IMG/VR virus record: IMGVR_UViG_2721755676_000007
Direction: 5' to 3' (one strand)
Length of the DNA: 60,642 bases
Origin: a virus
Taxonomy: Duplodnaviria > Heunggongvirae > Uroviricota > Caudoviricetes
In this document: positions 4,271 to 51,529 of the stretch, piece after piece
How positions within the stretch are numbered: the stretch's first letter is position 1
Layout of the letters: the number at the start of each line of letters is the position of its first letter
Program-made: the position numbers and the translations under genes
Notes under the pieces: model-generated
Database searches by the model: none
What the model was told of the DNA's origin: nothing
What the model saw: only the letters and a program-made list of their open reading frames with translations

Positions 4271-4292
4271 AATTACCTCTCGCTTTTCTGCA

Positions 4293-4318
4293 ATAAAAAA
4301 GGCGCCATTTCTGGCGCC
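4293..4318 (-). terminator. Intrinsic terminator downstream of J
   Basis: Minus-strand hairpin GGCGCC-agaaat-GGCGCC followed by TTTTTTATT. Confidence 0.55.
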
Positions 4319-4337
4319 CGTATATGGGTTATAAAAT

Positions 4338-16177: not shown

Positions 16178-17203
16178 TTACGCCAGTTGTACGGACACGA
16201 ACTCATCAGGATCAGCCAGCAGCATCAGCGGTGCTGACTGAATCATGGTGAACTCTCGCGCCGGATCGCCGGATGTCTTCCAGTTTTTCGGATAACGGGG
16301 AGACGCATTAATACCCTCACTCAATGCGTCCGCATCCTGAATGCAGCCATAGGTGCGCAGACCGCGTGCCTGAGTGTTCCCCAGTACCATCGTGTTGTCC
16401 GGCAGGAAGTTCTTTTTGACGCCGTTTTCCACGTACTGTCCGGAATACACGACGATGGCCACATCGCCATACATCCCCTTATAGGACACCGCTTTACCCA
16501 GGTCTTTCACCGCTGTCTCCAGCTCGGAATGAGAGCCGCGACGGGTATCCAGCTTCTCCCTGACGGCTTTGAAGGAACGGAACAGCGCCCAGCCTTTCGG
16601 ATCAAACACGATGATATTCACCACGCCGCTGGCGTTCAGCGCGTAGGCTTCGATATCGTCGGTCGGGTCATACGTGGACTTGTCACGCTTGCTCCACTCC
16701 GTGCCGCCGGACTGCGTGATGTTGTTCGCCGCACTGCGGCCCATATCCACCTCAACCGGATCGAAGGCTTCACCGGTCATGGTGTATTTGCCCTTGAGCA
16801 CGGCAGAAACTGCCTGCATCTCTTCGACCTGAGCAATGGCCAGCTCTTCGTCACGCATGTTCTGCATGATGATGCGACGGCGGCGGTAAGCCGGGTCCGC
16901 CAGATTCTGCGGATCTTCATCCGGCAGGCGACGCAGGGTCATCTGCGGATTCACCTCATGCTTGGGTTTGACATATCCCGGCGTAAATTCAGAGGTGGAG
17001 CCGCCACGGGAACGGATAACCTCACCGGAAACAATCGGCGAAACGTACAGCGCCATGTTTACCAGTCCCGGAATTTGTGAGAGATAGACTTTCTCCGTAG
17101 TGAAGGGATAGCTCTCACGGAAAAAGAGACGCAGAAACAGCGGATCAAACTTAAATTTCTGCTCATTTGCCGCCAGCAGCTGGGCGGTTGTGTACATCGA
17201 CAT
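16178..17203 (-). CDS. E: Major capsid protein E
   Basis: Start at MSMYTTAQLLAANEQKFKFDPLFLRLFF gives 1026 nt as in lambda E. Confidence 0.93.
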   Translation of the reverse strand: MSMYTTAQLLAANEQKFKFDPLFLRLFFRESYPFTTEKVYLSQIPGLVNMALYVSPIVSGEVIRSRGGSTSEFTPGYVKPKHEVNPQMTLRRLPDEDPQNLADPAYRRRRIIMQNMRDEELAIAQVEEMQAVSAVLKGKYTMTGEAFDPVEVDMGRSAANNITQSGGTEWSKRDKSTYDPTDDIEAYALNASGVVNIIVFDPKGWALFRSFKAVREKLDTRRGSHSELETAVKDLGKAVSYKGMYGDVAIVVYSGQYVENGVKKNFLPDNTMVLGNTQARGLRTYGCIQDADALSEGINASPRYPKNWKTSGDPAREFTMIQSAPLMLLADPDEFVSVQLA

Positions 17204-17258
17204 AAAAAAATCCCGTAAAAAAAGCCGCACAGGCGGCCTTTAGTGATGAAGGGTAAAG

Positions 17259-17591
17259 TTAAACGATGCTGATTGCCGTTCCGGCAAACGCGGTCCGTTT
17301 TTTCGTCTCGTCGCTGGCAGCCTCCGGCCAGAGCACATCCTCATAACGGAACGTGCCGGACTTGTAGAACGTCAGTGTGGTGCTGGTCTGGTCAGCAGCA
17401 ACCGCCAGAATGCCAACGGCAGCACCGTCGGTGGTGCCATCCCACGCAACCAGCTTACGGGTGGAGGTGTCCAGCATCAGCGGGGTCATTGCAGGCGCTT
17501 TCGCACTCAATCCGCCGGGCGCGGTTGCGGTATGAGCCGGGTCACTATTGCCCAGCGGCTGGTAATGGGTAAAGGTTTCTTTGCTCGTCAT
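17259..17591 (-). CDS. D: Head decoration protein D
   Basis: Start at [12 protein letters not shown] gives 333 nt as in lambda D. Confidence 0.92.
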
Positions 17592-17600
17592 AAACATCCC

Positions 17601-18206: not shown

Positions 18207-18920
18207 CCGGGACTGCAGTGTCTCCCGGACGTCATCCGGAAGATGGCTGTAGGGGTTGCCATCCACCTTATGGCTGCCGCTGTAAATCAGCGTGATTTCC
18301 ACACCCTGTTTCTCCAGGGCAGCACCGTAATTACTGTGAGCCATCATGACGCCGATGGAGCCTGTCCGGGCGGTCTGCGTGACCAGACGCCGGGAGGCGG
18401 CACTGGCAAGCAACTGACCTGCACTGCAGTTCATGTCGTTGGCCAGCGCCCATACCGGTTTTATGTCACGCACACGGGCGATGATGTCAGCGCAGTCAAA
18501 TGCCCCCGCCACCATCCCGCCGGGCGTGTCCATATCGAGCAGAATGCCGTCCACCATCGGATCGCTGGCAGCCTGTTGCAGACGGGCGATAATGCCGTTG
18601 TAACCGGTCATCCCCGAGTACGGCTGCAGCGCCCGCGTCCGGCTGACCAGCGTGCCGGACACCGGCAGCACGGCGATGCCGTTCATGACCTGATAACTGC
18701 GGGCCTGTCGTGGTCCGTCATCATCACCGGATAATGCCAGCGTCGCGAGTGCCTCCTGGGCAGTCAGGCTGTCGCCGGACACCGCATCCGTCAGGCGGCT
18801 GATCCCAAGCTGGCCTGCAAGCGCACAAAAGAAAACCCGCGCATAGGCGGGTTCAAGCATCAGCGGCTCATTAAAGGCCATACTGGCAATATGCGGGAGA
18901 TTACGCAGCTCTGCTGTCAC
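17601..18920 (-). CDS. C: Prohead protease / scaffold protein C (S49/ClpP-like)
   Basis: 1320 nt as in lambda C when started at the GTG at 18918-18920 (TAELRNLPHIASMAFNEPLMLEP); an in-frame ATG exists further upstream at 19055. Confidence 0.85.
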   Translation of the reverse strand: MTAELRNLPHIASMAFNEPLMLEPAYARVFFCALAGQLGISRLTDAVSGDSLTAQEALATLALSGDDDGPRQARSYQVMNGIAVLPVSGTLVSRTRALQPYSGMTGYNGIIARLQQAASDPMVDGILLDMDTPGGMVAGAFDCADIIARVRDIKPVWALANDMNCSAGQLLASAASRRLVTQTARTGSIGVMMAHSNYGAALEKQGVEITLIYSGSHKVDGNPYSHLPDDVRETLQSRMDATRQMFAQKVSAYTGLSVQAVLDTEAAVYSGQEAIDAGLADELVNSTDAITVMRDALDARKSRLSGGRMTKETQSTTVSATASQADVTDVVPATEGENASAAQPDVNAQITAAVAAENSRIMGILNCEEAHGREEQARVLAETPGMTVETARRILAAAPQSAQARSDTALDRLMQGAPAPLAAGNPASDAVNDLLNTPV

Positions 18921-19680
18921 TCTTCTCCTCCTCTGTTGATTGTCGCAGTCCGGATTCAAATGCCGCAGCCGCCCAGGCGGGCGGTTTAAGACCGGCTGCG
19001 CGGCGCTCCATCGTTTCACGGACCTGCTGGGCAAAAATTTCCTGATAGTCGTCACCGCGTTTCGCGCACTCTTTCTCGTAGGTGCTCAGTCCGGCTTCTA
19101 TCAGCATCACCGCTTCCTGAACTTCTTTCAGACCATCGATGGCCATACGACCGGAGCCTATCCAGTCGCAGTTCCCCCAGGCACTGCGGGCTTCCTGAAA
19201 ACTGAAGCGCGCTTTTGAAGGTAACGTCACCACGCGGCGAACGATGGCCTCTTCCAGCCAGCACAGAAACATCTGGCTCGCCTGACGGGATGCGACGAAT
19301 TTTCGCCGCCCCATAAAGTACGCCCACGACTCGTTCGCACTGGCCCGTGCCGTGGAGTAGCTCATCTGGGCGTAATTCCGGGAAAGCTGCTCATACGAGA
19401 CACCCAGCCCGGCAGCAATATACCGCAACAGTGACTGCTCAAATACGGAGTAGCCGTTATCCGTGTCCTGAGCCGTCTGCAGGTTCAGTGAGTCCCCCGG
19501 CATCAGGTGCGGCACTTTTGCGCCTCCCAGCCGGACCGGTGCTGCGGCGTAATACGCGGCAATTTCACCAATCCAGCCAGTCAGCCTTTCCCGCTGCTCC
19601 TGACTGTTCGCGCCCAGAATAAAATCCATCGCTGACTGCGTATCCAGCTCACTCTCAATGGTGGCGGCATACATCGCCTT
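18901..19680 (-). pseudogene. B: Portal protein B, C-terminal fragment (separated from its N-terminal part by the 10.9 kb insertion)
   Basis: Reads ...KA-MYAATIESELDTQSAMDFILGAN... to a C-terminus ending EEEKSDSRAA as in lambda B; upstream sequence beyond 19680 is unrelated. Confidence 0.9.
19673..19680. repeat. Left copy of the 8-bp junction direct repeat ATCGCCTT (att core or target duplication)
   Basis: Identical octamer at 30572-30579; both copies read K-A-(M/I) in the B frame. Confidence 0.85.
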
Positions 19681-19754
19681 TATGAAAAGACAGGAAAAAA
19701 TAAAATTTAAAAACAGTACATTACGAATGCTCAGACCTATCGTTTAAAGGAGTC

Positions 19755-19777
19755 GCAATACACACTGCAATACACGA
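19755..19777. repeat. Two direct copies of GCAATACAC(A/G) near the left end of the insert (candidate integrase arm sites)
   Basis: tcGCAATACACAcTGCAATACACGa; three copies of TGCAATACACA occur at the other end (30381-30434). Confidence 0.5.
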
Positions 19778-20107
19778 TTATTTATAAGATGAGCGGCATC
19801 CGTCATAAAGCTGGTGGATGCTTTTTCTATGCATATATGCACAGTTTTAGTGGGCGTTAATGTCGATATAGGGATCCCCATATCGAGATTGGATACCTGG
19901 CTTTTTTCCGGTTAACCTTTAATCAGGCTGGTGGGCTTTACCTGTTTTGTATGAGTGGTCATCATGACCATGTCATAACAAAAACCCCATATTCGTGGTT
20001 TTTCTGTGTCGGGCTATTCTGTCGTTGCTGTGCTGATTTGGCTGGTGGGCTGAATCATCATTACGGCGATGCAGCTATGTAGACGTTCCGGCCTCCTCAA
20101 ATTGAGG

Positions 20108-20245
20108 ATTGTGGAAGAATCAATGGGTTAGTCTTACTTTCCCGACATCCCCCAATGGGGGTTTTCGAAACAATCAATAGCTTAGGCTTACTTCCCCGAT
20201 TTCCTGCATTGCAGGTTTTCGAAATAATCAATGGGTTAGGCCATC
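20108..20245. repeat. 54-bp tandem repeat, about 2.5 copies, each unit containing a short hairpin palindrome
   Basis: AATCAATGGGTTAG / AATCAATAGCTTAG / AATCAATGGGTTAG at 20118, 20172, 20226; palindromes CCCCCAATGGGGG (20149-20161) and CCTGCATTGCAGG (20203-20215). Confidence 0.7.
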
Positions 20246-20489
20246 GTGCAATTTTGCACTTTGCCAGCCAGCGCAATGTCGCGTTATCAGTCCTCAGATG
20301 TGAGGGATGTAGCCAGCTTTTCCCCCAGTGGGGGATATCCAGCACCGACGGCTTAACTGTGCGTGCCAGCACAAGGTAGCCTTGAACTACTTACTGCATC
20401 CCATCTTACAGGCCGTGCCTTCCTGCTTAACTTTTTGCAATGCAACAAGTCAGCCAGCGCAATTTTGCGTTATCGGGAATATCAGCAAG

Positions 20490-20771
20490 TTACCGCCGCA
20501 ATCGTTCCGGCTTCTTCCACTGGTAAGTATTTTTCGCGCTCTCCCTCCGTTGTTGAGAACGGCGACGATATGCCAGCAACTCAAGGACTCTTGTTCGTAT
20601 GTTGCGCATATCCACGCCGTTAAGCTCAATACCGTCACGGCGCATCACCTCAGCCACTACACGCACATAATTATCTGCGGTCACGCTGTCCGGCTGCGTG
20701 GCCTGTTCGTCATGCTGCTTGCTGATTCCACAAGCACGGCGGATTAATCGCAGTATTTCGGATTCAGTCAT
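20490..20771 (-). CDS. Hypothetical protein (93 aa), satellite-encoded
   Basis: ORF downstream of the Nu1-like gene in the same orientation; no recognisable motif. Confidence 0.45.
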   Translation of the reverse strand: MTESEILRLIRRACGISKQHDEQATQPDSVTADNYVRVVAEVMRRDGIELNGVDMRNIRTRVLELLAYRRRSQQRRESAKNTYQWKKPERLRR

Positions 20772-20782
20772 AGCGTACTACG

Positions 20783-21337
20783 TTACTTATCTTTATTCGG
20801 CTGCAACTTATCCGGTACGTTTCCGGCAGTTTCCATCAGATAATCGGACAGCATCAGCGGTATGTTTTCGTCAAGTTTTGCGCATGCGTTACAGGCTCTG
20901 ATAACTTCTTTTTTCAGTCCATCCAGCATAGACGGCTTCATGTCGGGAAACTTCCTTGTCATGGCAAGCGGCAGGCTGTCCATGATTGAAGAAATCTGAC
21001 TCGCCAATTTTGAAAGCACGTATATACAAAACGCTGTATCAATAACGTCGCCGCGTTCGCGCTCGTTTTTAAGCTCCTGCGCCTCTGCCTGTGCTGTCAG
21101 CAATCTGATCCTGACTCGTAGAAGTTCATCATCATCAATCTCGCCTTTGTCGTCTGTAATCTGGTTAATTGCATTGCTAACCCGATTGTCTATTACGCTG
21201 GCAACATCATAAAACGCCTCGCGGCCTTTACGTTCAACGGGAGTCACTCCCCACTTGTCGAACGCTGTCGCACTTACACGGCAGCTTTGCGCCATGTTTT
21301 TTTTGTTCATCAGGTGCGATTTCATCAATATCCCCAC
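20783..21337 (-). CDS. Terminase small subunit homologue (Nu1-like), satellite-encoded
   Basis: C-terminal half aligns with lambda Nu1 (DTAFCIYVLSKLASQISSIMDSLPL vs ETAFCTFVLSRIAGEIASILDGIPL); sits about 120 bp downstream of the satellite cos; start may be the internal MNKKNM at 21310. Confidence 0.8.
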   Translation of the reverse strand: MGILMKSHLMNKKNMAQSCRVSATAFDKWGVTPVERKGREAFYDVASVIDNRVSNAINQITDDKGEIDDDELLRVRIRLLTAQAEAQELKNERERGDVIDTAFCIYVLSKLASQISSIMDSLPLAMTRKFPDMKPSMLDGLKKEVIRACNACAKLDENIPLMLSDYLMETAGNVPDKLQPNKDK

Positions 21338-21436
21338 TTAAGTAATGTTTCAGGTTGGTGTATTGGCTTTATCTTTTCCTTTTTATTCATAGAGATAGAG
21401 CGAACAACAAAACCACCACCAGCACCCGAAAAAGGC

Positions 21437-21502
21437 TCATAAATAGCGAAAACCCGCGAGGTCGCCGCCCCGTAGCCTACCGGATCACCGGAAAGGACCC
21501 GC
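21437..21502. other. Satellite cos site (cosN 12-mer at 21459-21470)
   Basis: 66-bp block with 4 mismatches to the prophage cos block at 34202-34267; contains the reverse complement of GGGCGGCGACCT; flanking cosB-side sequence differs. Confidence 0.8.
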
Positions 21503-21526
21503 CAGCCAGAGCGGGCCCTAATTTCA

Positions 21527-21910
21527 TCAACCAATCAGCTTATAGCGACCATCCCGTGCATTGCGGCGTACACGCTCAATCTTGAGGCATAGCGCCGCAT
21601 CTGGCTTTTTTGGGACAGGTACGCGGCAATATTCAGAAGCGCGAGGAATATTATTTATCCAGTCGATCACTTCACTTAAATACCAGGCCTTACGCCCTTC
21701 CGTAACCTGCACACGCTCCGGGAACTCTCCACTAGCCTCAAGGTTTAGCAGTGTACGACGACTCAGGGTTGTAATTTCCATCACCTGATTCATATCAACA
21801 AGGCGCTCGCTTAAACACATTTTGTCAGCGATAGCTTTTAATTCCTCTACAGCTGGATTCGGGTACATCATTTCGGCAATTGGCTTAAGGTCATTGTAAT
21901 CATTCTGCAT
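21527..21910 (-). CDS. AlpA-family HTH regulator (127 aa)
   Basis: C-terminal region ITTLSRRTLLNLEASGEFPERVQVTEGRKAWYLSEVIDWI resembles AlpA/excisionase-type HTH. Confidence 0.55.
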   Translation of the reverse strand: MQNDYNDLKPIAEMMYPNPAVEELKAIADKMCLSERLVDMNQVMEITTLSRRTLLNLEASGEFPERVQVTEGRKAWYLSEVIDWINNIPRASEYCRVPVPKKPDAALCLKIERVRRNARDGRYKLIG

Positions 21911-21921
21911 TGTATCCCCCT

Positions 21922-22263
21922 TTACACACGAGCCAGCGGCTGAACAGAAATACCTGAGCCAACAAACGCTGCAACCTTTACTGACAGTTCTTTAACAGAC
22001 TCAGGCCAGTTCAGAGCATCAACATTTAAGACACCTGTCTTATAGACCTGAGCCTGTGTTTTTTTCGCGGTGTCGATTTGTACAGCGGAAACATAAACCG
22101 CTTTACCTACGCTCGAACCATCCCATACCACCAGTGCACCTGTTGCATCTTCCTGCATCAGTGGCGTAAATGCAGGAATTACCCCTTTATTAGCTGAAAA
22201 TATCCCCAGCGTAGTCACCAGTGCTTCAGTGCCAGCCATGAGTTCAGTGTAATGAGTAGCCAT
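21922..22263 (-). CDS. Head decoration protein D paralogue, satellite-encoded
   Basis: 113 aa; aligns with lambda D over VWDGSSVGKAVYVSAV...YKTGVLNVDALNWPE vs [17 protein letters not shown]...[15 protein letters not shown]. Confidence 0.7.
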   Translation of the reverse strand: MATHYTELMAGTEALVTTLGIFSANKGVIPAFTPLMQEDATGALVVWDGSSVGKAVYVSAVQIDTAKKTQAQVYKTGVLNVDALNWPESVKELSVKVAAFVGSGISVQPLARV

Positions 22264-22272
22264 TGCTCCCCC

Positions 22273-23319
22273 TTAGCCAATGCGAACGGTAACAAAACGA
22301 TTGATGCGGGCCGGTATTGGCTGTGGTGCTGAATGTGTCTGCACATATTCAATAGCCGGATCACCAGGCACAATATAGTTTTTCGGTGCAAGTTCGGCTT
22401 TAGTCAGCCCCATTCGGATTAGCTCCGGATCCTGAATACCGCCATAGGCGACAATCCCCTGAAGAGCCGTATTGCCAAGCACCATCAAATCAGGATCAAG
22501 GAAATGTTTTTCTGTTCCGTCCTCGTCGGTATAACGCCCGCTGTAAACAACAATCGCAACATCGCCCATATACCCTTTAAAACTCACCGAATCACCAAGG
22601 TCTTTAAGGGCCGTTTCCAGTTCGGAATTAGAACCACGACGGGTATCCAAAGCCTCTTTTATCGCTCTGAATGAACGGTATTTCTTCCATACATTACCAC
22701 CCATAATGATGATATTAGTGACGCCCTCACTAAATTCTGCGTAGCTCTCAATATCATCATTTGGATCAAAAGTTTCTTTATCCTTACCTGACCACTCAGT
22801 ACCGCCAGACTGAGTGATGATATTTTGTGGTTTTATATTCCAGTCCAGCTCATAACGTTCAATACCATCGCCCTCAATGATATTTTTCCCCGTTGTGATT
22901 GCCTGAACAGCAAGCCATTCAATACGTGCACGAATAGCTTTAGCCTGATTTACAATCGCCTGTTTAACTTTAATATTACGCGCCCCAAAAGCATTGTATT
23001 GCTCAGGTGACACACCAGCAGGGCGCACAGCTAACTTATTTGGATCAATGCTGCTTTTCGGCTTCATATAACCTGGACGAATTGTTTTTGATTCGTATCC
23101 CTCATCTCGTGAAACTTTACTGCCCACCATAGGAGAGCAAAACGCCGCGATCGGGATATTTGGATCGTCGATCGTATCAAGAATAATGTCTCTCGATTCA
23201 AACATTACCGAGCGAGTGAAAAACAAACTGGTAAACAACGCATTTAATTTTTTTTGCACATCTTCAGCATTAGCCACCTGCACAAGCTGTGTAGGCGAAT
23301 ATAAATCAACCATACTCAT
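22273..23319 (-). CDS. Major capsid protein E paralogue, satellite-encoded
   Basis: 349 aa from MSMVDLYSPTQL; conserved blocks ITQSGGTEWSGKDKETFDPNDDIESYA and LDTRRGSNSELETALKDLGDSVSFKGYMGDVAIVVYSGRY match lambda E. Confidence 0.85.
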   Translation of the reverse strand: MSMVDLYSPTQLVQVANAEDVQKKLNALFTSLFFTRSVMFESRDIILDTIDDPNIPIAAFCSPMVGSKVSRDEGYESKTIRPGYMKPKSSIDPNKLAVRPAGVSPEQYNAFGARNIKVKQAIVNQAKAIRARIEWLAVQAITTGKNIIEGDGIERYELDWNIKPQNIITQSGGTEWSGKDKETFDPNDDIESYAEFSEGVTNIIIMGGNVWKKYRSFRAIKEALDTRRGSNSELETALKDLGDSVSFKGYMGDVAIVVYSGRYTDEDGTEKHFLDPDLMVLGNTALQGIVAYGGIQDPELIRMGLTKAELAPKNYIVPGDPAIEYVQTHSAPQPIPARINRFVTVRIG

Positions 23320-23530
23320 CCTCTTTACATTCATTACAAATAATTGTGAATATATTCTATTACCGATGTCTGCTATGCGAACACATGCAACCAAGTGCAA
23401 TGTTGTATAAAATATGCCGTAACAACTTCAGTGCTGATAATTCGTGTTAATGTATTTACTTCCTTTGGTCGGGATTTATGTAGCATGCCGGAAAATCTAT
23501 TTTTTTCCGGCATCTTTTTGTTTGCAGAAT

Positions 23531-23953
23531 TTAAAACGGTATATTATCGCCGTACGGATCATCATTCCCCGACTGTTGTTTTGCCCTGTTCAGTGCGTCA
23601 GTGGCCTGCCCCTGCTGGCCTTTTTTGCCGCCCGGTCGCGCCGTTCGCGCACTGATTACGCTGTCTGCGATAAGCTGCCAGCCCCGCCGCGTTTCGCCGT
23701 TCTGGCCTGTCCACTGGCTTACCTGCATGTTACCCGCCACGCTCACCAGTTCGCCTTTGTGGTGTTTTGCCAGTGCGTCGGCCTGTCTGCCAAACGCCAG
23801 GACGGATAACCACATCGTCGCCGTTCCGTCATCTGCCTGGCTGCACGGCAGGGGAACCGCCATACTCGCCATCGCCATTTGTGTCCCTTTGCTGGTGGTC
23901 TTTAACTGCGGGTCAGCCACCAGCCGCCCGTAAGCCGCTATCTGTGCTGTCAT
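23531..23953 (-). CDS. ssb: Single-stranded DNA-binding protein (SSB-like)
   Basis: 140 aa with OB-fold-like N-terminus, Gly/Gln-rich linker and acidic C-terminal tail ending DNIPF (SSB tip DDDIPF). Confidence 0.7.
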   Translation of the reverse strand: MTAQIAAYGRLVADPQLKTTSKGTQMAMASMAVPLPCSQADDGTATMWLSVLAFGRQADALAKHHKGELVSVAGNMQVSQWTGQNGETRRGWQLIADSVISARTARPGGKKGQQGQATDALNRAKQQSGNDDPYGDNIPF

Positions 23954-24264
23954 GCTGTCTGCTCTCCGGTTTTAACATTGATGGTTGTCACCTGTTCCGC
24001 TTCGGCAATCTCCCGTTCTGTCAGCGTGGCAAAGTTTGCCGCTGCTGTGGTCATAAATGCGCTTATCAGGTCGGGATGTTCCTTCGCGTATCCTGCCCGT
24101 GTGTGGTGGTCTATCGCTTTGATTGCCACCTTTAAGGAAAGCTCTGTCATGTCTAACGCTTTATATTTTGCCTGTGTTCTGTCTCTGCGAATTTTGGTCA
24201 TTTGTCGCCCCTGATTCATGTTTTCGGCTGGCATGTTTGTTAAGTGATTTTTATGTATGCGCAT
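23950..24264 (-). CDS. Hypothetical protein (104 aa)
   Basis: ORF coupled to ssb (ATGA overlap), immediately downstream of the iteron region. Confidence 0.45.
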   Translation of the reverse strand: MRIHKNHLTNMPAENMNQGRQMTKIRRDRTQAKYKALDMTELSLKVAIKAIDHHTRAGYAKEHPDLISAFMTTAAANFATLTEREIAEAEQVTTINVKTGEQTA

Positions 24265-24315
24265 TTATTTTCACCCCCCCTCGTTTAAAAAGTTTTTAGT
24301 TGTGCCTCCCCCCCC

Positions 24316-24537
24316 TCTACCCATCTACCCGAATGCTCATCATGTCAGTAATGGCGCCGCTTTCAGCGGGTAGATAGCTTTTTTGACTCCTCTACCTGCC
24401 GTCTACCCTGCTACCTGAAACTGATAAAATCAGGTAGAAGAGGTAGAGAGCTTTTATTAGCCTTCTACCTAGCCCTATACCCACTTATCATGTTGAATAA
24501 TATGCGTTTATTTCGTTCAGGTAGATGGGGTAGATGG
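24316..24537. repeat. Iteron array (GGTAGA / TCTACC repeats), candidate satellite replication origin
   Basis: At least 12 copies of the hexamer in both orientations immediately downstream of the primase gene. Confidence 0.7.
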
Positions 24538-24550
24538 CTTTTACAAAAAA

Positions 24551-26305
24551 TTATAAAAACGCGTCGCAATCGTCTGTTGTAATTGCGTTGGTCTGCGTTA
24601 CTCCCTTAACTTTTCGCGTAATATATTCATGCCCGTAAACTTTCGCCGCTGGCTTCATGGCCTTGCTGAACTCAGCCACGTTTAGCGGTTTGCTCCTGCC
24701 CGCGTATGCCATAAACGCCAGATAGACGCGGTAAAGGCTGTTCCTGGTCGTGTACTTCACTGAATCACCACCGCCACCCATCATCAGGCCGCGCGCTTCC
24801 TCCAGAAAATTCAGGAACTGGCAAAACTCAATAACCGGATCCGTCTGTTGCTTTATTGCCAGTGCTTCATCACCGTCACGCTGTTCCAGTAGTAAAGCCC
24901 GTGCCTTCTCAGGGTCGGTAAAGTTCGCCAGCAATCGGCGGATAATAACGGGGATTTCAGCCGCAATCTTTTCCGGTAGCTCCCTGTCTTTTTCGGCCTC
25001 ACTGACGATATTGTCGAAACGGAAAATCACGCGACGACGTGCCACACCTCCGGCCCGTTCGGTGAATATCATCGGGTTGTTGTTGGTCGCCAGCACCACC
25101 GCCCTGATTACCGCCGTGAAACGCTTTTCATATTTCGGGTTAATTTCCACGGGGTCGCCGCCTGTGATTTTCTTGATGCCCGTTCCTTCGCCTGTATATT
25201 TCGGCTGGTCAGCCAGGACGATAAGACGACTCCCGACAACCTGCGCACGTCCACCAGCATCATCAAGCGATGTCATTTCAGCGCTTACCGTGTTCTGTTT
25301 CCCTGCCAGAAGGCTGGCTATGTGTGTGAATGTACTTTTACCGCTCCCGCCGTCTCCGGTGGCCTCAATAAACATCTGCCAGTCGTACCGGTTCGCCATA
25401 ATCATGTACAGCGCGGCACATATACGCATCATCTTGCGCGGGTCTTTTCCGGCTGCGTGCTCAAGCCATTTATGAAAGTTTGGCGCGTTATCGCGGATGT
25501 TCTCCCCTGGTGCTGGTGGCGTGTACTCAATGCCGTTGTGCGTGGTGATCCAGTTCTCCGGCGTGTGCGGGGAAAATTCCCCCGTTTTCAGGTCAAGCGC
25601 ACCATTGGCGAACGGCAGCAAATCGCCAGACGGCTCGCCCATTGGTTCGGCAATAACTTTTAACGCTTCCACGGCGTTATTGATTACGCGCTTGCTGAAA
25701 GTGGCCCTGTGCTCTGAATAGATCGCCACCATTTCGCGGCTAAGTTCCATTGTGCTGACCGGACACCATACCCCGCCGCGCCATACGTGAACGATTTCAC
25801 TTTCAGGATGTACGCAAACGCCATCAAAGCGATCGGCAAGCAACTGCGCGCGCTCACTGTCCGCCATCTGCGAAAGTTGCGCCTTTTGCTTTACCGGAAG
25901 CTCAATGACCAGACCATCAGAAAGATTCTGGCGTTCACGGGCCAGATATTCGCGCCAGTTCTGCACCTCCTGGCCGTGCATACCCTCAGGATAAAAATTT
26001 GCATCCTGTACGCCTGCTGCCGCCAGCTTCTGACCAATCGCCTTTATCATTACAGGCGCAAGATATCCGGCCCTGTATATGCGTGCTGATTTTCGGCCTT
26101 CCGGCACAATTTGCAGATTATCCAGTTCGGATAGCTGCTGCTCCCCAAGCCACACAGGAGGCTCATTATCTCCGGCCATACGCGCATCATGTTCCTGCCA
26201 TTGTTTCGCGTGTGCCCAGGCATCACTACCCGCAAAAATAATTACTTCTGTTCCTTTGTGTTTTATGCCGCGTGACTGCTGTTTTACGTTCGGTGCCAGT
26301 TTCAT
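24551..26305 (-). CDS. P4 alpha-like primase/helicase (D5 family, Walker A GDGGSGKST)
   Basis: 584-aa ORF with P-loop NTPase core and phage/plasmid primase C-terminal-type architecture. Confidence 0.8.
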   Translation of the reverse strand: MKLAPNVKQQSRGIKHKGTEVIIFAGSDAWAHAKQWQEHDARMAGDNEPPVWLGEQQLSELDNLQIVPEGRKSARIYRAGYLAPVMIKAIGQKLAAAGVQDANFYPEGMHGQEVQNWREYLARERQNLSDGLVIELPVKQKAQLSQMADSERAQLLADRFDGVCVHPESEIVHVWRGGVWCPVSTMELSREMVAIYSEHRATFSKRVINNAVEALKVIAEPMGEPSGDLLPFANGALDLKTGEFSPHTPENWITTHNGIEYTPPAPGENIRDNAPNFHKWLEHAAGKDPRKMMRICAALYMIMANRYDWQMFIEATGDGGSGKSTFTHIASLLAGKQNTVSAEMTSLDDAGGRAQVVGSRLIVLADQPKYTGEGTGIKKITGGDPVEINPKYEKRFTAVIRAVVLATNNNPMIFTERAGGVARRRVIFRFDNIVSEAEKDRELPEKIAAEIPVIIRRLLANFTDPEKARALLLEQRDGDEALAIKQQTDPVIEFCQFLNFLEEARGLMMGGGGDSVKYTTRNSLYRVYLAFMAYAGRSKPLNVAEFSKAMKPAAKVYGHEYITRKVKGVTQTNAITTDDCDAFL

Positions 26306-26601
26306 TTTTTACCTCTGAATCCGTTAATCATGGTTTTCATTTTCTGGATATTTCCCCACGCTTTTTCCCTGCTGATGGGCTTACTGCGGGGTGCGGCATA
26401 TACCAGGGAAAAATCACGCCGGAACTGATAAACAGGCATCACGCAGTCATAGCTATACCCCTCACGGCGGTAAGTGATGCGCCGTTCTGCCACGCCTTTA
26501 ATCGTTACCGTGCCGCCGTATTTATCGCGGTAAATATCGCCGTTCATAAATTCAGGTCGAGCGGGGCCGCTGGCAATAAAGCCAGAATTTTTCATTTCCA
26601 T
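26302..26601 (-). CDS. Hypothetical protein (99 aa)
   Basis: ORF coupled to the primase start (overlap at 26302-26305). Confidence 0.45.
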   Translation of the reverse strand: MEMKNSGFIASGPARPEFMNGDIYRDKYGGTVTIKGVAERRITYRREGYSYDCVMPVYQFRRDFSLVYAAPRSKPISREKAWGNIQKMKTMINGFRGKK

Positions 26602-26618
26602 ATTATTTATTCCTCGAC

Positions 26619-26840
26619 TTAACTCGACTTATTTGATAGCAGGGCACTATTTATTGCGTCATTGAGTTTTTCTGCTGATTCATCAATAAGTGACAACAGG
26701 CCATAAGCAATATTTGCATCTTCATTGTCATTTATGCAATCAAGCCACATATTTAATATTGCTTTTGCTGAATTATTTAAAGTTAATGAACTTTCTGCAC
26801 ATGCTAACAATTTAAAAAAGACTTCCCGTTCTGTATTCAT
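26619..26840 (-). CDS. Hypothetical protein (73 aa)
   Basis: Small ORF in the same operon orientation. Confidence 0.4.
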   Translation of the reverse strand: MNTEREVFFKLLACAESSLTLNNSAKAILNMWLDCINDNEDANIAYGLLSLIDESAEKLNDAINSALLSNKSS

Positions 26841-27032
26841 TTAATCCCCCACCAGCTTACTTTCTTCCTCAATCAAAAAACTAGCGACACTTCCCGAAAG
26901 ACGCGCCAGTAGGCTCGCCAGTGCGGATATATCAGCATCTGTAATTTTGTTCGGGTATACCTCAAGAAGGCGGCAAATAATTTCTGTCTGGTGCGCACGT
27001 TCAGCGGCTTCGTGTAATGTAATTTCCTGCAT
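26841..27032 (-). CDS. Hypothetical protein (63 aa)
   Basis: Stop/start overlap with the next ORF at 27032. Confidence 0.4.
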   Translation of the reverse strand: MQEITLHEAAERAHQTEIICRLLEVYPNKITDADISALASLLARLSGSVASFLIEEESKLVGD

Positions 27033-27217
27033 TAATGCACCTCTTTTAATTCATACACTGCTGAAATAATGACTTGTGATAAGCCATATTCTGATGATTC
27101 GCTTCTCACCGCAGCAATAGCCGTCTGAACATTAACAGCCTTCACATTCTGAGCGATACCAATTGTGTGGCCTATTGGGTTAACAGCTCGGGCAAATACA
27201 CGGAAGGTTTTAAGCAT
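27032..27217 (-). CDS. Hypothetical protein (61 aa)
   Basis: ATG preceded by GGGAG-type Shine-Dalgarno; first gene of the leftward operon. Confidence 0.45.
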   Translation of the reverse strand: MLKTFRVFARAVNPIGHTIGIAQNVKAVNVQTAIAAVRSESSEYGLSQVIISAVYELKEVH

Positions 27218-27597
27218 GACTCACTCCCTGGCGGATTTTTGCAGCGAATACAGCAACACAACCGGACGGGCAACGGCTACGCGCTTCGCGTTCCGTCCAG
27301 GCGGTTACGTGGATGATTTGAGATTCTCCGGCACTCAGTGCCAGAAAACGCCACACAAAGGCCGTTTGTGTGTGTACAAGGTGTGGTATATGATTTACAG
27401 CAACCATAACGGCTCCTAGTTTACGTTGTTGGTTAGACGCCCCGTATGTGTTCCCAGCACTGCGGGGCGTTGCTCTTTGTATTTCAACAATCCTTTCGGT
27501 GTGTTTCATGTTATGAGCGCATGAAACACACGTCAAGGCTTTTTGTATTTCTTTTTTTGTGTATACTGAAACACACCGATGATTAGGAGTTTCAGAA

Positions 27598-27903
27598 ATG
27601 GCAACGGCTAACAAAAACGCAAAATCACAACTGACAACTGTCAGAGTCCCACTAGATGTTATGCAAGGGATGGAATCCGTTAAGCTGGACGGTGAAAGCA
27701 ATGCCGGATTTATCGTAACCGCCATGCGCGGAGAAATAGCCCGCCGCCAAGCAGAAGGCAGCGGAGAAAATCCCCTTGTGTCGTCACTGGATGCCCTGGC
27801 TAAGGTCGAACAAATCGGCATCAAAGCAGCCGAGGAGATCGGGCAACTCGTCACCGTCGCGCGTGAAGAACTCCAGCGACGCAAGGTCAAAGAGCATGAA
27901 TAG
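27598..27903 (+). CDS. Small DNA-binding-like protein (possible ribbon-helix-helix), the only plus-strand gene in the satellite
   Basis: 101 aa; AGGAG 8 nt upstream of ATG; divergent from the small-ORF/primase operon across 27218-27597. Confidence 0.5.
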   Translation: MATANKNAKSQLTTVRVPLDVMQGMESVKLDGESNAGFIVTAMRGEIARRQAEGSGENPLVSSLDALAKVEQIGIKAAEEIGQLVTVAREELQRRKVKEHE

Positions 27904-28236
27904 CCAATATCAGCGCCATAGTTTGAGGAACGCAGGCGCATTGCTTTACAGGACAGCACCATGAGCGACACAGAATCAACCAAAACACCATCACCAACTC
28001 GTAAGAGACGACGCAAAAATATAGCGCATGAACATGAATCAGAAAGATTCGCACCTTGTTCGTTTGCTCTTGAGAAATTCCTTAAAGAGCACAGGAAAAA
28101 GCTCTCGTTGCAAACCTTGGAACGAACCAAATCTGGCTGATCACATTGCCCACCAGCCGCAAATGTGGCATTGTTGGTGATGCTTTTGTTTTCCCTTGTT
28201 CCCACTGGCGACCCTTTTGCGGTCGCCTTTGTTTTG

Positions 28237-28560
28237 TCACTGAATGCGGTTACCAAAGTAAAACTCAGGCTGATATTCACGTATCAGCGTTTTTTCTTCT
28301 TCCTCCAGCTCACGCTTTTTGCGCTTACATGCCTGTAGCTCCCTCCCCTTCTCGCTGGCACTTATTTGATATTGCTCTTTACGGCGGGAAAAATCCTGTA
28401 ATGCACCCCACGGGATACCATAAGTCCCCGTTTTTCTGATACCTGGTATCACATTTCTGAATACCCAGTTACTGAAACGATGAGCAAATGTGCCAGGCGT
28501 CGTTGCTTTGCGGCTGCGGGCTATTAGTTTGTAGAAACCTGACTCAGAGATAATTCTCAT
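28237..28560 (-). CDS. Bro-N domain protein, C-terminal part (split ORF)
   Basis: SESGFYKLIARSRKATTPGTFAHRFSNWVFRNVIPGIRKTGTYG is the second half of a Bro-N domain. Confidence 0.6.
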   Translation of the reverse strand: MRIISESGFYKLIARSRKATTPGTFAHRFSNWVFRNVIPGIRKTGTYGIPWGALQDFSRRKEQYQISASEKGRELQACKRKKRELEEEEKTLIREYQPEFYFGNRIQ

Positions 28561-28814
28561 ATTCTGATTTCCTCCTGGGTGTAAGTTAAATTTACTCCCT
28601 TTTCATCATCATCAAGCATCTGCAACGCCGTACGCGAATTGGTTAGTTCCAGCGCAGCACAAACATCTTTTGCAACAAACCACGGATCGCCGTTCAGATA
28701 CACCACACGAACGTTCACACTATCAAAGCGCAGAACGACGAGATCACGAATATCGCAGAATTTTTTCACTGGACGAGCGTACCCCTTGCCCGTCACGGCA
28801 ATATTTTTATTCAT
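28557..28814 (-). CDS. Bro-N domain protein, N-terminal part (split ORF)
   Basis: DPWFVAKDVCAALELTNSRTALQMLDDDEKG is the first half of a Bro-N domain; ends GGAGGAAATCAGAATATGA overlapping the next start. Confidence 0.6.
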   Translation of the reverse strand: MNKNIAVTGKGYARPVKKFCDIRDLVVLRFDSVNVRVVYLNGDPWFVAKDVCAALELTNSRTALQMLDDDEKGVNLTYTQEEIRI

Positions 28815-28870
28815 CGCGTTTTTACCTTATAGACAAAAAACCCCTCGTGATGAGGGGCATTATTTACTGG

Positions 28871-29128
28871 TTATTGCTGTTTTGTTTTTCCAGGTTTCCA
28901 TCCAGGATGCCACTCACCACGGATCCATGCCTGAACCTCTGAAAGTCGATACCCTGCAGCACGTTCACCGATCTTGATACGTCGCGGGAATTTACCTGCC
29001 TGCTCCATTTTCCAGCGTGTTGAGTTTGCCAGCGTGGTAAGTGCTATGCACTCTTTTTCACGAATGAACCGATCAATGTCCTTCATTGTGCGCAAATCGT
29101 TTTCATCAACAAGAGAATAAATTGCCAT
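28871..29128 (-). CDS. alpA: AlpA-family transcriptional regulator / excisionase-like
   Basis: 85 aa directly downstream of the integrase, typical P4/CP4-57-type int-alpA pair. Confidence 0.7.
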   Translation of the reverse strand: MAIYSLVDENDLRTMKDIDRFIREKECIALTTLANSTRWKMEQAGKFPRRIKIGERAAGYRLSEVQAWIRGEWHPGWKPGKTKQQ

Positions 29129-29129
29129 A

Positions 29130-30371
29130 TCACACCACCTCTTTATTAAGCTCGATAACGTTGTTGTTAAATCCTGCTATCGTATTAAGGTAATTAACCC
29201 ACATATTAAGCACCTCAAGTTTTTTCTTTATATGCCTGCTTTTATTGTAAACACCAGCAACCCCTTTCACTTTATGACCTAAAAGAAGTTCGACAATATA
29301 AGGATCCGCCCCCATATCATTAAGCGTAGTGGAAAATGTGCGCCTGAAATCATGTATGCACCACAAGCCATTAGTATCATGACCAAGACGCCTGCATATT
29401 CTGTTTGCAGCCCCTGTTATTGTCGCCCTTTGCAAAGCACAACCGACAACATAACCGCGATTTTTTGTTTCTGCGTAAAGATTAACGATCCATTGTTTTA
29501 TTCCGTCAGGAACAGGCCTTACTATAGCCTCCTTGTTTTTGCTGTGCTCTTTTGGGACTGTCCATACCCAGTTTTTTAAATCCCATTCGTCCCAGGTGGA
29601 TAGCCTCGCCTCCTGCTGTCGGCAACCAAACACCAGGCAGATAACCATTATTCTTCGGTTATATATTGATGACAGAGTTAGCAAATTATTACCGTAAGCA
29701 TAAGACCATACATCAGCGGTTTCATTGATATTAAGAACGCGATCCCTTATACCGGATGAGCGCCCGACATAACTTACGTTAATATCTCCAAAGGGATCGC
29801 ACGCGATGTATTGCCTGACGCGACAAAAACGCAACGCCTGTTTGATATCAAGAAAAATTGCACCAGACATAACAGGCGCATTTTTTTTGATCCTGTCAAA
29901 GACGGTAAGCCATGTGTGTAATTTGCACTGTTCTATAGCCATATCACCGATATAGGGGAAGATATGCTTTTCAAATCGTTTTATTAAATATTCATGCTCT
30001 TTTCTGGCTGTTGTGGCGTGATTGTCGTACCAGTAAAACAGCGCATCCCTTACGGTCACTGGTTGCATAGTTTTTTCGGCAGCAAGTTTTATTTGCCTGC
30101 GGGGGTCCAGATTTTCAGCCAGCCATTCACGGCACTGATCACGCATGCGCCTGGCCGTTGCAAGAGACATGTCAGGATAGCGACCAAGTGTAAGCCATAC
30201 CGGAGGGGATTCCCTGCCACCAAGACGATAGTAAAAAACAAAGCTGATCCCCCCAACCATGCTTACACGCACAGACAACCCGCGCCCATCCGCTATTGTT
30301 TTTTGTTTGTCCTGCCGTTTTCCGACAAGACTCTTTAACAGTTTGTCACTGAGTTTGTTTTCAATAGCCAT
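29130..30371 (-). CDS. int: Tyrosine integrase, P4-type
   Basis: 413 aa; N-terminal GRGLSVRV...GGISFVFYYRLGGR arm-binding-type domain; C-terminal HDFRRT...LLGH...Y catalytic signature. Confidence 0.88.
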   Translation of the reverse strand: MAIENKLSDKLLKSLVGKRQDKQKTIADGRGLSVRVSMVGGISFVFYYRLGGRESPPVWLTLGRYPDMSLATARRMRDQCREWLAENLDPRRQIKLAAEKTMQPVTVRDALFYWYDNHATTARKEHEYLIKRFEKHIFPYIGDMAIEQCKLHTWLTVFDRIKKNAPVMSGAIFLDIKQALRFCRVRQYIACDPFGDINVSYVGRSSGIRDRVLNINETADVWSYAYGNNLLTLSSIYNRRIMVICLVFGCRQQEARLSTWDEWDLKNWVWTVPKEHSKNKEAIVRPVPDGIKQWIVNLYAETKNRGYVVGCALQRATITGAANRICRRLGHDTNGLWCIHDFRRTFSTTLNDMGADPYIVELLLGHKVKGVAGVYNKSRHIKKKLEVLNMWVNYLNTIAGFNNNVIELNKEVV

Positions 30372-30380
30372 TAAAAGCCC

Positions 30381-30434
30381 TCAAGAGATTTGCAATACAC
30401 ACCCATCCCGATCGCCAATTTGCAATACACATTG
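30381..30434. repeat. Three direct copies of TGCAATACACA upstream of the satellite integrase (candidate arm-type sites)
   Basis: Copies at 30381, 30411 and 30424; same motif twice at the opposite end of the insert. Confidence 0.55.
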
Positions 30435-30571
30435 CAATACACAAAACCGCGAAAAACTGGAAGGGTGATGAACGGTCATCAAAAGCATGGAAAACGACAT
30501 TCCAGACGCAGCAAGGGTTTCAGTGGAGTTGGCGAACGATGCGGGCAACTACGGTGAGATGATAGACATAA

Positions 30572-33500
<2,929 letters not shown>

Positions 33501-33526
<26 letters not shown>

Positions 33527-34046
33527 TCAGCAACCCCGGTATCAGTTCATCCAGCGCGGCTGCTTTGTTCATGGCTTTGATGATATCCCGTTTCAGGAAA
33601 TCAACATGTCGGTTTTCCAGTTCCGGAAAACGCCGCTGCACCGACAGGGGGATCCCGTCGAGAATACTGGCAATTTCACCTGCGATCCGCGACAGCACGA
33701 AAGTACAGAATGCGGTTTCCACCACTTCAGCGGAGTCTCTGGCATTCTTCAGTTCCTGTGCGTCGGCCTGCGCACGCGTAAGTCGATGGCGTTCGTACTC
33801 AATAGTCCCTGGCTGGAGATCTGCCTCGCTGGCCTGCCGCAGTTCTTCAACCTCCCGGCGCAGCTTTTCGTTCTCAATTTCAGCATCCCTTTCGGCATAC
33901 CATTTTATAACGGCGGCAGAGTCATAAAGCACCTCATTACCCTTGCCACCGCCTCGCAGAACGGGCATTCCCTGTTCCTGCCAGTTCTGAATGGTACGGA
34001 TACTCGCACCGAAAATGTCAGCCAGCTGCTTTTTGTTGACTTCCAT
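33501..34046 (-). CDS. Nu1: Terminase small subunit Nu1
   Basis: 181-aa ORF MEVNKKQLADIFGASIRTIQNWQEQGMPVLRGG matching lambda Nu1. Confidence 0.93.
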
Positions 34047-34201: not shown

Positions 34202-34267
34202 TCATAAATAGCGAAAACCCGCGAGGTCGCCGCCCCGTAACCTGTCGGATCGCCGGAAAGGACCCGC
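34202..34267. other. Prophage cos site (cosN 12-mer at 34224-34235; lambda genome ends)
   Basis: Contains reverse complement of GGGCGGCGACCTCGCGGGTTTTCGCTATTTATGAAAATTTTCC and of the lambda right end ...CGACAGGTTACG. Confidence 0.9.
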
Positions 34268-50956: not shown

Positions 50957-51529
50957 TCATATTGCCCCCAGCATGGTGGTAACCATCGCCATCAATGGAC
51001 CAGCCAGATCAGGATCCACACGAAACATCGACACAATGCCTTCACTCATCTCCTTCAGTTTCTGGTGGCGTGGTGCGTTGAGAATGACCGCCTGTTTTGC
51101 CTCGCTGAGCTCCTTTTCCATTTCAACCAGTCGAGCCATGAAGCTATCCTGCTCAACCAGGTGGCCGCGATATTTCAGCGGTAGTACTGCCAGAATTGCT
51201 GGAGTCAGTTCACGCACGTTATTTCGGTATTTTTCAGAATCGAATTTGTTATCGAGAAAGCGGAACAGCTTCTGGCGTGCACGACTGACATCATCAGGAA
51301 AATCGATAGTGCCGCCGCCCTGTGCTCGATACTCATTCACAATGAGTGCGGCAACGACATCCTGATTATCTACAGCCGACCAGGCGCGGACGGCATCACG
51401 GATTTTTTCGTGGCCTGGCACCTGTTTTATTTGAGAACGATTTATCACCGCAGTCGGGATAAATCCGCTAGTCTGTTGGTATGTAATTGGTTGCATAATT
51501 GATTCCTTTAGTCTGAATTGACTGTTCAT
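50957..51529 (-). CDS. YdaT-like protein (occupies the cII position)
   Basis: 190-aa ORF between the Cro-like gene and O; family assignment from memory only. Confidence 0.45.
   Translation of the reverse strand: MNSQFRLKESIMQPITYQQTSGFIPTAVINRSQIKQVPGHEKIRDAVRAWSAVDNQDVVAALIVNEYRAQGGGTIDFPDDVSRARQKLFRFLDNKFDSEKYRNNVRELTPAILAVLPLKYRGHLVEQDSFMARLVEMEKELSEAKQAVILNAPRHQKLKEMSEGIVSMFRVDPDLAGPLMAMVTTMLGAI

Follow-up and report, generated by a model that had tools for sequence, protein, structure and literature searches.

How can a satellite that sits inside a gene of another phage start its own DNA replication? This question is raised by a stretch of 60,642 nucleotides (the window, below) from IMG/VR virus record IMGVR_UViG_2721755676_000007, assigned to the Caudoviricetes. 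Its positions 23,531 to 26,305 hold a helicase gene, an array of short repeats, a small open reading frame (ORF) and a gene for a single-stranded DNA-binding protein (SSB). An earlier note, made from the sequence alone, had described these parts as a self-contained replication module, and the 584-aa helicase with its Walker A motif GDGGSGKST, the small ORF and the SSB gene are all found at the places it gave, on the minus strand. The span very probably serves the replication of a Gram-negative phage-inducible chromosomal island (PICI), which is embedded in the portal gene of a lambdoid helper prophage of E. coli and carries a pri-rep/ori replicon of the type described for the island EcCICFT073. 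By analogy with that island, it is well supported that the initiator-helicase, its cognate downstream iteron origin and the SSB form a satellite replicon able to work apart from the O/P origin of the helper. Since the replicon type is known from earlier work (Fillol-Salom 2018), as is the element embedded at precisely this site (Tommasini 2023), the finding is another copy and not a new system. The sole new angle is that the "primase" of this family has no recognisable primase domain, its N-terminus being formed by a shuffled module instead.

The initiator-helicase and its downstream iterons

The protein at the centre of the module, named Pri-Rep here, and the array that follows its gene comprise the following features:

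26305-24551, minus strand: initiator-helicase Pri-Rep, 584 aa, with Pfam matches to D5_N, DUF5906 and Pox_D5
25901-26305, minus strand (aa 1 to ~135): unclassified N-terminal α/β domain, defined by an AlphaFold2 (AF2) model and profile searches
aa 153-282 of Pri-Rep, minus strand: D5_N domain (Pfam)
aa ~300-470 of Pri-Rep, minus strand: superfamily 3 (SF3) ATPase/DUF5906, with Walker A at 316-324
24847-24578, minus strand (aa 487-576): C-terminal winged helix, a putative origin-binding domain, by its match to PDB entry 1ka8
24316-24537, no strand: putative origin with 12 hexamer iterons, 10 exact GGTAGA/TCTACC and 2 degenerate
24482-24519, no strand: AT-rich spacer between the first inverted iteron pairs, ~29% G+C as counted from the sequence
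24346-24366, minus strand: conserved block CTGAAAGCsGCGCCATTACTG outside the iterons, flanked by iteron 10 and the last pair, near-invariant in 13 origins

Pri-Rep combines D5_N, an SF3 helicase and a C-terminal winged helix, which is the arrangement of the P4 alpha type. Across 20 homologues, residues G319, G322 and K323 of the Walker A motif are invariant, as are the sensor-1 residue N409 and the arginines R423-425. The best match to a solved structure is PriRep of the Staphylococcus aureus pathogenicity island (SaPI) SaPI5 (PDB 7ola; E 4e-15, aa 190-432), while the C-terminal part matches the origin-binding winged helix of P4 alpha (PDB 1ka8; E 8e-6, aa 488-576). Residues 141-573 of Pri-Rep correspond to P4 alpha 324-756 with 40% identity over 434 aa, and only these residues align. 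The EcCICFT073 protein is much closer, being 97.8% identical.

The first iteron begins 16 nt past the helicase stop codon. GGTAGA or TCTACC occurs 15 times in the window, which is about the total in shuffled sequence; 10 of these copies lie at 24316-24534, in both orientations, and the other five all fall outside the satellite. The binomial probability of 10 such hexamers in one given 222-bp interval is ~1e-21. In 300 shuffles no 222 bp held more than 4 of them, and GGTAGA is the most clustered hexamer of the window. Two degenerate copies, GGTATA (24481-24476) and GGTAGC (24415-24410), complete the set. With arrowheads for the iterons and their directions, the layout on the coding strand reads << AT-rich 38 bp >> 16 bp << 17 bp >>> 16 bp < 39 bp >>. 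Counting and aligning the iterons has thus borne out the two-orientation array that the earlier note described.

Conservation is concentrated in the hexamers. In 542 E. coli genomes, that of CFT073 included, the origin region has a homologous counterpart in an intergenic stretch without annotation, and the hexamers occupy identical positions in the CFT073, O103, O157 and MDR56 origins, where the spacers are only 75-82% identical. Among 13 distinct origins of the GGTAGA type, invariant columns make up 71% of the iterons as against 22% of the spacers (Fisher p 3e-12). The 38-bp spacer is AT-rich in all 13 of these aligned origins and is a probable DNA-unwinding element, whose melting would open the duplex. 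Besides the block at 24346-24366, a second non-iteron block, AAAACTTTTTAAACGAGGGGG at 24275-24295, is near-invariant in the same set; it lies just before the small ORF and includes its Shine-Dalgarno sequence. The first block was considered as a DnaA box, an integration host factor (IHF) site, a promoter or a G4-type DnaG priming signal, none of which could be supported. Scanned for promoters and terminators, the origin gave no match, and the array showed no sigma-70-like promoter.

The pairing between helicase and iterons was followed in related loci. A first homologue search gave only ~100%-identical E. coli proteins, and the protein diversity comes from a representative search; an alignment-based scan of viral contigs yielded 80 related loci and a single-protein contig scan 3. 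For the iteron survey, 39 loci with 48-100% protein identity were used, from IMG/VR contigs, Serratia and Morganella. In every one of the 39, a single hexamer recurs 6-12 times, in both orientations, within the 330 bp past the helicase stop. The type of hexamer tracks the lineage of the C-terminal winged helix. GGTAGA, as in the window, pairs with the "MMGGG...SLYRxYxAFM" clade of this domain down to 47% identity, and TGTTCA[CT]/GGTGAACA is the partner of the "GN...YLYHAYLAYM" clade, to which P4 alpha belongs; the hexamer of P4-type relatives is TGTTCAC. This covariation supports the prediction that the C-terminal domain of Pri-Rep binds the iterons. A seeming switch of specificity between two loci whose C-terminal domains are 94% identical, L051 (TGAACA) and L055 (GTATAC), was discarded, as both mix variants of a degenerate GGTRTWCAT.

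The closest known system is EcCICFT073. The CFT073 locus is identified with this island because it shows the order DUF4222, 584-aa protein, origin, small ORF and SSB, then capsid and decoration genes. It shares with the window the order of genes from DUF4222 to SSB, the positions of the GGTAGA/TCTACC hexamers and the AT-rich stretch, so that the window origin, with 12 iterons starting 16 nt past the stop codon around a 38-bp AT-rich spacer, is collinear with that of CFT073. Moreover, both elements carry homologues of the lambda-type capsid protein E and decoration protein D. They differ in that the inter-iteron spacers are only ~77% identical, the N-terminus of the small ORF is 21 codons longer in the window, and the window satellite lies in a helper portal gene and has its own Nu1-like small terminase (TerS) gene, whereas EcCICFT073 occupies a chromosomal site. 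A plasmid with the EcCICFT073 pri-ori region is maintained in DH5alpha, deletion of pri or ori abolishes or reduces its replication, and deletion of pri-rep lowers transfer of the island ~100-fold (Fillol-Salom 2018, ISME J, PMC6092414).

Phage P4 offers a second comparison, and with it another possible reading. P4 alpha has homologous D5_N, SF3 helicase and winged-helix domains, and the P4 crr element (4291-4590) lies directly 3' of the alpha gene, with iterons TGTTCACC in both orientations around A/T-rich stretches. The annotated P4 ori is 4.5 kb away. The window array could accordingly be a crr-like enhancer required in cis, in which case synthesis would start from another cluster of iterons within the element; its position just 3' of the helicase and the 40% identity of the helicase and C-terminal domain to P4 alpha would fit. 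However, a split arrangement of this kind is highly improbable because the satellite has no second GGTAGA cluster, and for EcCICFT073 the pri gene and the region just downstream are enough for plasmid maintenance (PMC6092414). The type-1 iterons TGTTCACC of P4 are divided between two cis elements that lie apart, ori and crr; the window has a single GGTAGA cluster. The comparison with PICI and P4 origins that the earlier note had called for therefore places the array with the former, by its hexamers collinear with CFT073, and likens it to crr in position but not in iteron sequence.

The third comparison is with the Rep and PriRep proteins of the SaPIs (Ubeda et al.; Qiao et al. 2022, PMC9371898), which likewise have an SF3 helicase, a winged helix and 3' iterons around an AT-rich centre. 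In the SaPI model, the winged-helix C-terminal domain binds 6-12 hexanucleotide iterons just 3' of rep, opposed around the AT-rich centre (PMC9371898). Similarity in sequence to Pri-Rep is confined to the ATPase core (E 4e-15), and the SaPIs have a separate or fused primase, none being recognisable in the window element.

The mechanism suggested for the EcCICFT073-type replicon follows these parallels. Pri-Rep would act as a self-loading SF3 initiator-helicase whose C-terminal winged-helix domains bind the GGTAGA iterons next to its own stop codon. Through the opposed iteron sets, a hexamer would come to lie at each flank of the 38-bp AT-rich spacer, and this spacer would melt as the double hexamer is loaded. 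Each helicase ring would then encircle single-stranded DNA and unwind it 3'->5', with primers and DNA synthesis supplied by the host (DnaG and DNA polymerase III). The satellite SSB, with a ...DNIPF tip that may mimic that of E. coli SSB, would coat the unwound strands, and together with the small ORF it would be a dispensable and exchangeable helper. The 1ka8 and 7ola matches, the covariation and the SaPI model support two of these proposed steps, namely that the C-terminal domain binds the iterons and that the helicase loads itself at the AT-rich spacer.

The N-terminal domain and the source of primers

If Pri-Rep is an initiator and a helicase, is it also a primase? The earlier note had called it a P4-type primase/helicase. 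This description holds for the helicase and origin-binding part (aa 141-573) and fails for the primase part. P4 alpha and its ~800-aa homologues carry Zn_Ribbon_Prim (PF08273) and Toprim_3 ahead of D5_N, so that P4 has an extra N-terminal zinc-ribbon and Toprim primase of 320 aa that is absent here; neither Pfam domain was found in Pri-Rep. The TIGR01613 "primase_Cterm" model does score just above its threshold on Pri-Rep (109.0 against a cut-off of 108.7), and this match, from which the protein takes its name, covers the helicase part.

The N-terminal domain is predicted to be well folded, with an AF2 model of β-α-β-α-β-α-β-α topology and a predicted local distance difference test score (pLDDT) of 87. 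Pfam has no match to the N-terminal 140 aa, either in the window protein or in 20 family members. Comparison of the domain family with a P4-type Toprim alignment by hhalign gave a probability of 0.1%. The invariant residues of that Toprim alignment are E41, D87, D89, D117 and D120, and those of the N-terminal domain family are only E20, G26 and A29. Additionally, there is no E/DxD motif in the N-terminal 140 aa and no cysteine in residues 1-150.

The same domain also occurs fused to DUF927 and AAA_25 helicases. Among E. coli PICIs it is by far the most variable part of the helicase, its 140 aa being 44-96% identical in close relatives whose D5_N/SF3 core is 95-100% identical. Two loci illustrate this in opposite directions. 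In comparison with the window protein, L047 is 91% identical in the N-terminal domain and 45% in the core, while L037 is 44% identical in the N-terminal domain and 96% in the core. Loci L037, L047 and L006 show the domain swapped between helicases of differing iteron specificity. Judged from these alignments, the N-terminal domain is an independently recombining module with no recognisable primase.

The ORF list shows no other gene in the satellite big enough for a primase. Since Pri-Rep has neither zinc ribbon nor Toprim, and no other primase-sized gene is present, priming by the host is the likeliest source of primers; a cryptic primase of a new kind is the remaining possibility. In this respect the earlier term "self-contained" was overstated, although it fits the set of initiator-helicase, origin and SSB. 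A bolder reading denies the "primase" of EcCICFT073-type PICIs any primase function and makes its N-terminal domain a new, freely exchangeable adaptor that recruits host priming or replisome proteins, or a target of helper or host interference. This reading is about as likely as not.

The flanking genes: DUF4222, the small ORF and SSB

Three small genes accompany the helicase and its origin:

26302-26601, minus strand: DUF4222 gene, 99 aa (Pfam DUF4222, E 9e-24), its stop overlapping the helicase start in ATGA
23950-24264, minus strand: small ORF, 104 aa from the conserved Shine-Dalgarno sequence and ATG, or 83 aa in RefSeq (from 24201), matching phrog_1231 (E 1e-48)
23531-23953, minus strand: satellite SSB, 140 aa, with an OB (oligonucleotide/oligosaccharide-binding) fold, a short linker and the acidic tip ...DDPYGDNIPF (Pfam SSB, PF00436, E 1e-15)

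In 78 of the 83 related loci, and also in CFT073, O103, O157 and MDR56, the gene directly upstream of the helicase is a DUF4222 homologue. The small ORF has no Pfam match and is present in 49 of these loci; the C-terminal half of its product, GYAKxHPxLISAFMTTAAANFATLTEREIAEAEQVTTINVK, is almost invariant among homologues. Its stop codon overlaps the SSB start in ATGA at 23950-23953, by which the two genes are predicted to be translationally coupled, as the earlier note had also read them together with the DNIPF tip of the SSB. The SSB is of the bacterial type, scoring above the TIGR00621 cut-off as well and matching many SSBs in the PDB. The C-terminal tip of E. coli SSB docks replisome proteins. 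In 42 complete homologues of the satellite SSB, the tip reads GDNIPF in 21, GDDIPF in 15 and GDGIPF in 3, so the IPF ending is kept in 39. Right after the SSB stop lies a hairpin with an 11-bp stem (23485-23513), whose T-run is on the plus strand, and it scores as a terminator only in the direction opposite to the genes.

The SSB gene is found in 43 of the 83 related loci and is missing from two of the four E. coli relatives inspected. SSBs 96-97% identical to that of the satellite also adjoin P4-type helicases with GGTGAA iterons. Because such near-identical proteins follow either iteron type, the SSB is not specific to one initiator, and its distribution marks it as an apparently optional, exchangeable accessory.

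This distribution also bears on whether the array serves the genes after it and not the helicase before it. It could be mainly a transcriptional operator or promoter for the small ORF, ssb and capsid genes, or a packaging site bound by TerS. It does lie directly upstream of these genes, its last two iterons and the conserved blocks (CTGAAAGC...ATTACTG and AAAACTTTTTAAACGAGGGGG) closely precede the Shine-Dalgarno sequence of that ORF, and initiator bound there could also autoregulate read-through. A purely regulatory or packaging role is nevertheless the least probable of the alternatives, because the hexamer type tracks the helicase C-terminal domain and not the downstream genes, near-identical small-ORF/SSB cassettes following GGTAGA or GGTGAA arrays, and because the cosN site and TerS gene of the satellite lie ~3 kb away. 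The array is kept where the SSB is missing, the scan found no promoter of the sigma-70 type in it, and deletion of the origin lowered replication of the CFT073 plasmid (PMC6092414). An origin thus remains the preferred reading of the array.

The embedded satellite and its helper prophage

Two further features place the module in its context:

19681-30579, minus strand: the whole satellite, a PICI of the helper-embedded kind (HE-PICI), 10,899 bp long, delimited by the split portal gene and the attachment (att) cores
50401-50519, no strand: helper prophage origin, lying within the O gene and having five palindromic iterons of ~17 bp, TTACCTGATTCGGGTAA

The satellite is bounded by the 8-bp att cores AAGGCGAT at 19673-19680 and 30572-30579, and it splits the helper portal gene into a C-terminal part (18901-19674, Phage_portal_2 profile positions 238-354) and an N-terminal part (30520-31401, positions 2-242). 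The break thus falls at profile positions ~238-242. All main genes of the satellite are on the minus strand, as are the late genes of the helper. Their order is int, AlpA, Bro-N, YlcI, Icd-like, small ORFs, DUF4222, helicase, origin, small ORF and SSB, followed by capsid E-like, decoration D-like, AlpA-like helix-turn-helix (HTH) and Nu1-like TerS genes. As is typical of a PICI initiator gene, the helicase has int (Phage_integrase) and AlpA genes upstream in the same orientation. Tommasini, Mageeney & Williams (2023, PMC10111431) describe site B:Phage_portal_2:241 (B_Phage_portal_2_241, Supp. File 1) with the core AAGGCGAT and with an E. coli element of 10,899 bp; in their scheme, Primase, DUF5906 and SSB belong to the "Replication zone" of HE-PICIs. 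The window satellite agrees with this group in portal site, core, length and the succession of Integration, Bro, Replication and Late zones. There is no substantive difference; their article leaves the iterons undescribed, as it does the domain composition of the "primase".

The helper has an origin of its own. Its O gene (49941-50960) matches Phage_rep_O, and the adjoining P gene (49243-49944) matches Phage_lambda_P. The iterons within O, five copies of TTACCTGATTCGGGTAA, are unrelated to GGTAGA, in agreement with what the earlier note had said of the O/P origin.

Several other observations concern the satellite as a whole. While it interrupts the helper portal gene, it carries its own lambda E-like major capsid and D-like decoration genes (21922-23400, minus strand), and those of the helper lie at ~16178-17597. 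The exact lambda cosN core GGGCGGCGACCT occurs twice in the window, at 21459-21470 (minus strand) in the satellite, just upstream of its Nu1-like TerS gene (21337-20783), and at 34224-34235 (minus strand) in the helper, upstream of a Nu1/nohD-type gene (33501-34046). Hence the satellite has the cos site of its helper besides its own small terminase. The non-coding tail between the last ORF and the att core holds three tandem 54-nt repeats (20088-20249), 65-72% identical, each with a short palindrome (CCTCAAATTGAGG, CCCCCAATGGGGG and CCTGCATTGCAGG); they are possible binding sites or small RNAs. An Rfam search found no match in the satellite at E <= 0.1, RNAs of the P4 CI/C4 type included. Near both ends, inside the att cores, GCAATACACA repeats at 19750-19775 and 30387-30442 are probably arm-type integrase binding sites.

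Some points weigh against an active replicon in this copy. Autonomous replication is attributed to it by analogy with its homologue EcCICFT073. Dispensability of the SSB and small ORF for replication is likewise a presumption, depending on the extent of the cloned EcCICFT073 fragment. The element may also be partly decayed, because its Bro-N gene (28237-28814, minus strand) is frameshifted: it consists of two ORFs of 85 aa and 107 aa, covering Bro-N profile positions 1-42 and 64-96, and spans 578 nt as against an intact gene of 579 nt in E. coli strain A5. Moreover, the related embedded PICI 11capE shows little or variable replication after excision, with an attP:attB ratio of ~1 in two repeats and 1.6-1.9 in one (2023 HE-PICI study).

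Could the module then be a mere passenger, replicated passively within the helper prophage in a decaying or uninduced element? The broken Bro-N gene and the mostly passive replication of 11capE with its helper would suit this view. On the other side, none of the replication ORFs is broken, the ten exact iterons are all still present, and Pri-Rep matches database entries at ~100% identity, one of which is present on at least 1,000 contigs. In addition, 52 complete E. coli genomes carry the satellite (at least 80% coverage of an 11-kb query around it), and the 15 copies listed as best among them are 99.5-99.9% identical, which argues for recent mobility. A passenger state is therefore rather improbable, if slightly less so than the other two alternatives, and a functional EcCICFT073-type replicon is the favoured reading.

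The module would explain how this embedded satellite can amplify after its excision from the helper. It consists of three separately exchanged pieces: first the N-terminal domain, second the helicase core together with its C-terminal domain and the origin, and third the pair of small ORF and SSB. For the "DNA primase" annotation, which is widely propagated for the Pri-Rep family, the helicase part of P4 alpha is the only basis. If the proposal that the family "primase" is not a primase is true, satellites of the EcCICFT073 type would replicate without a primase of their own, unlike P4 and the SaPIs.

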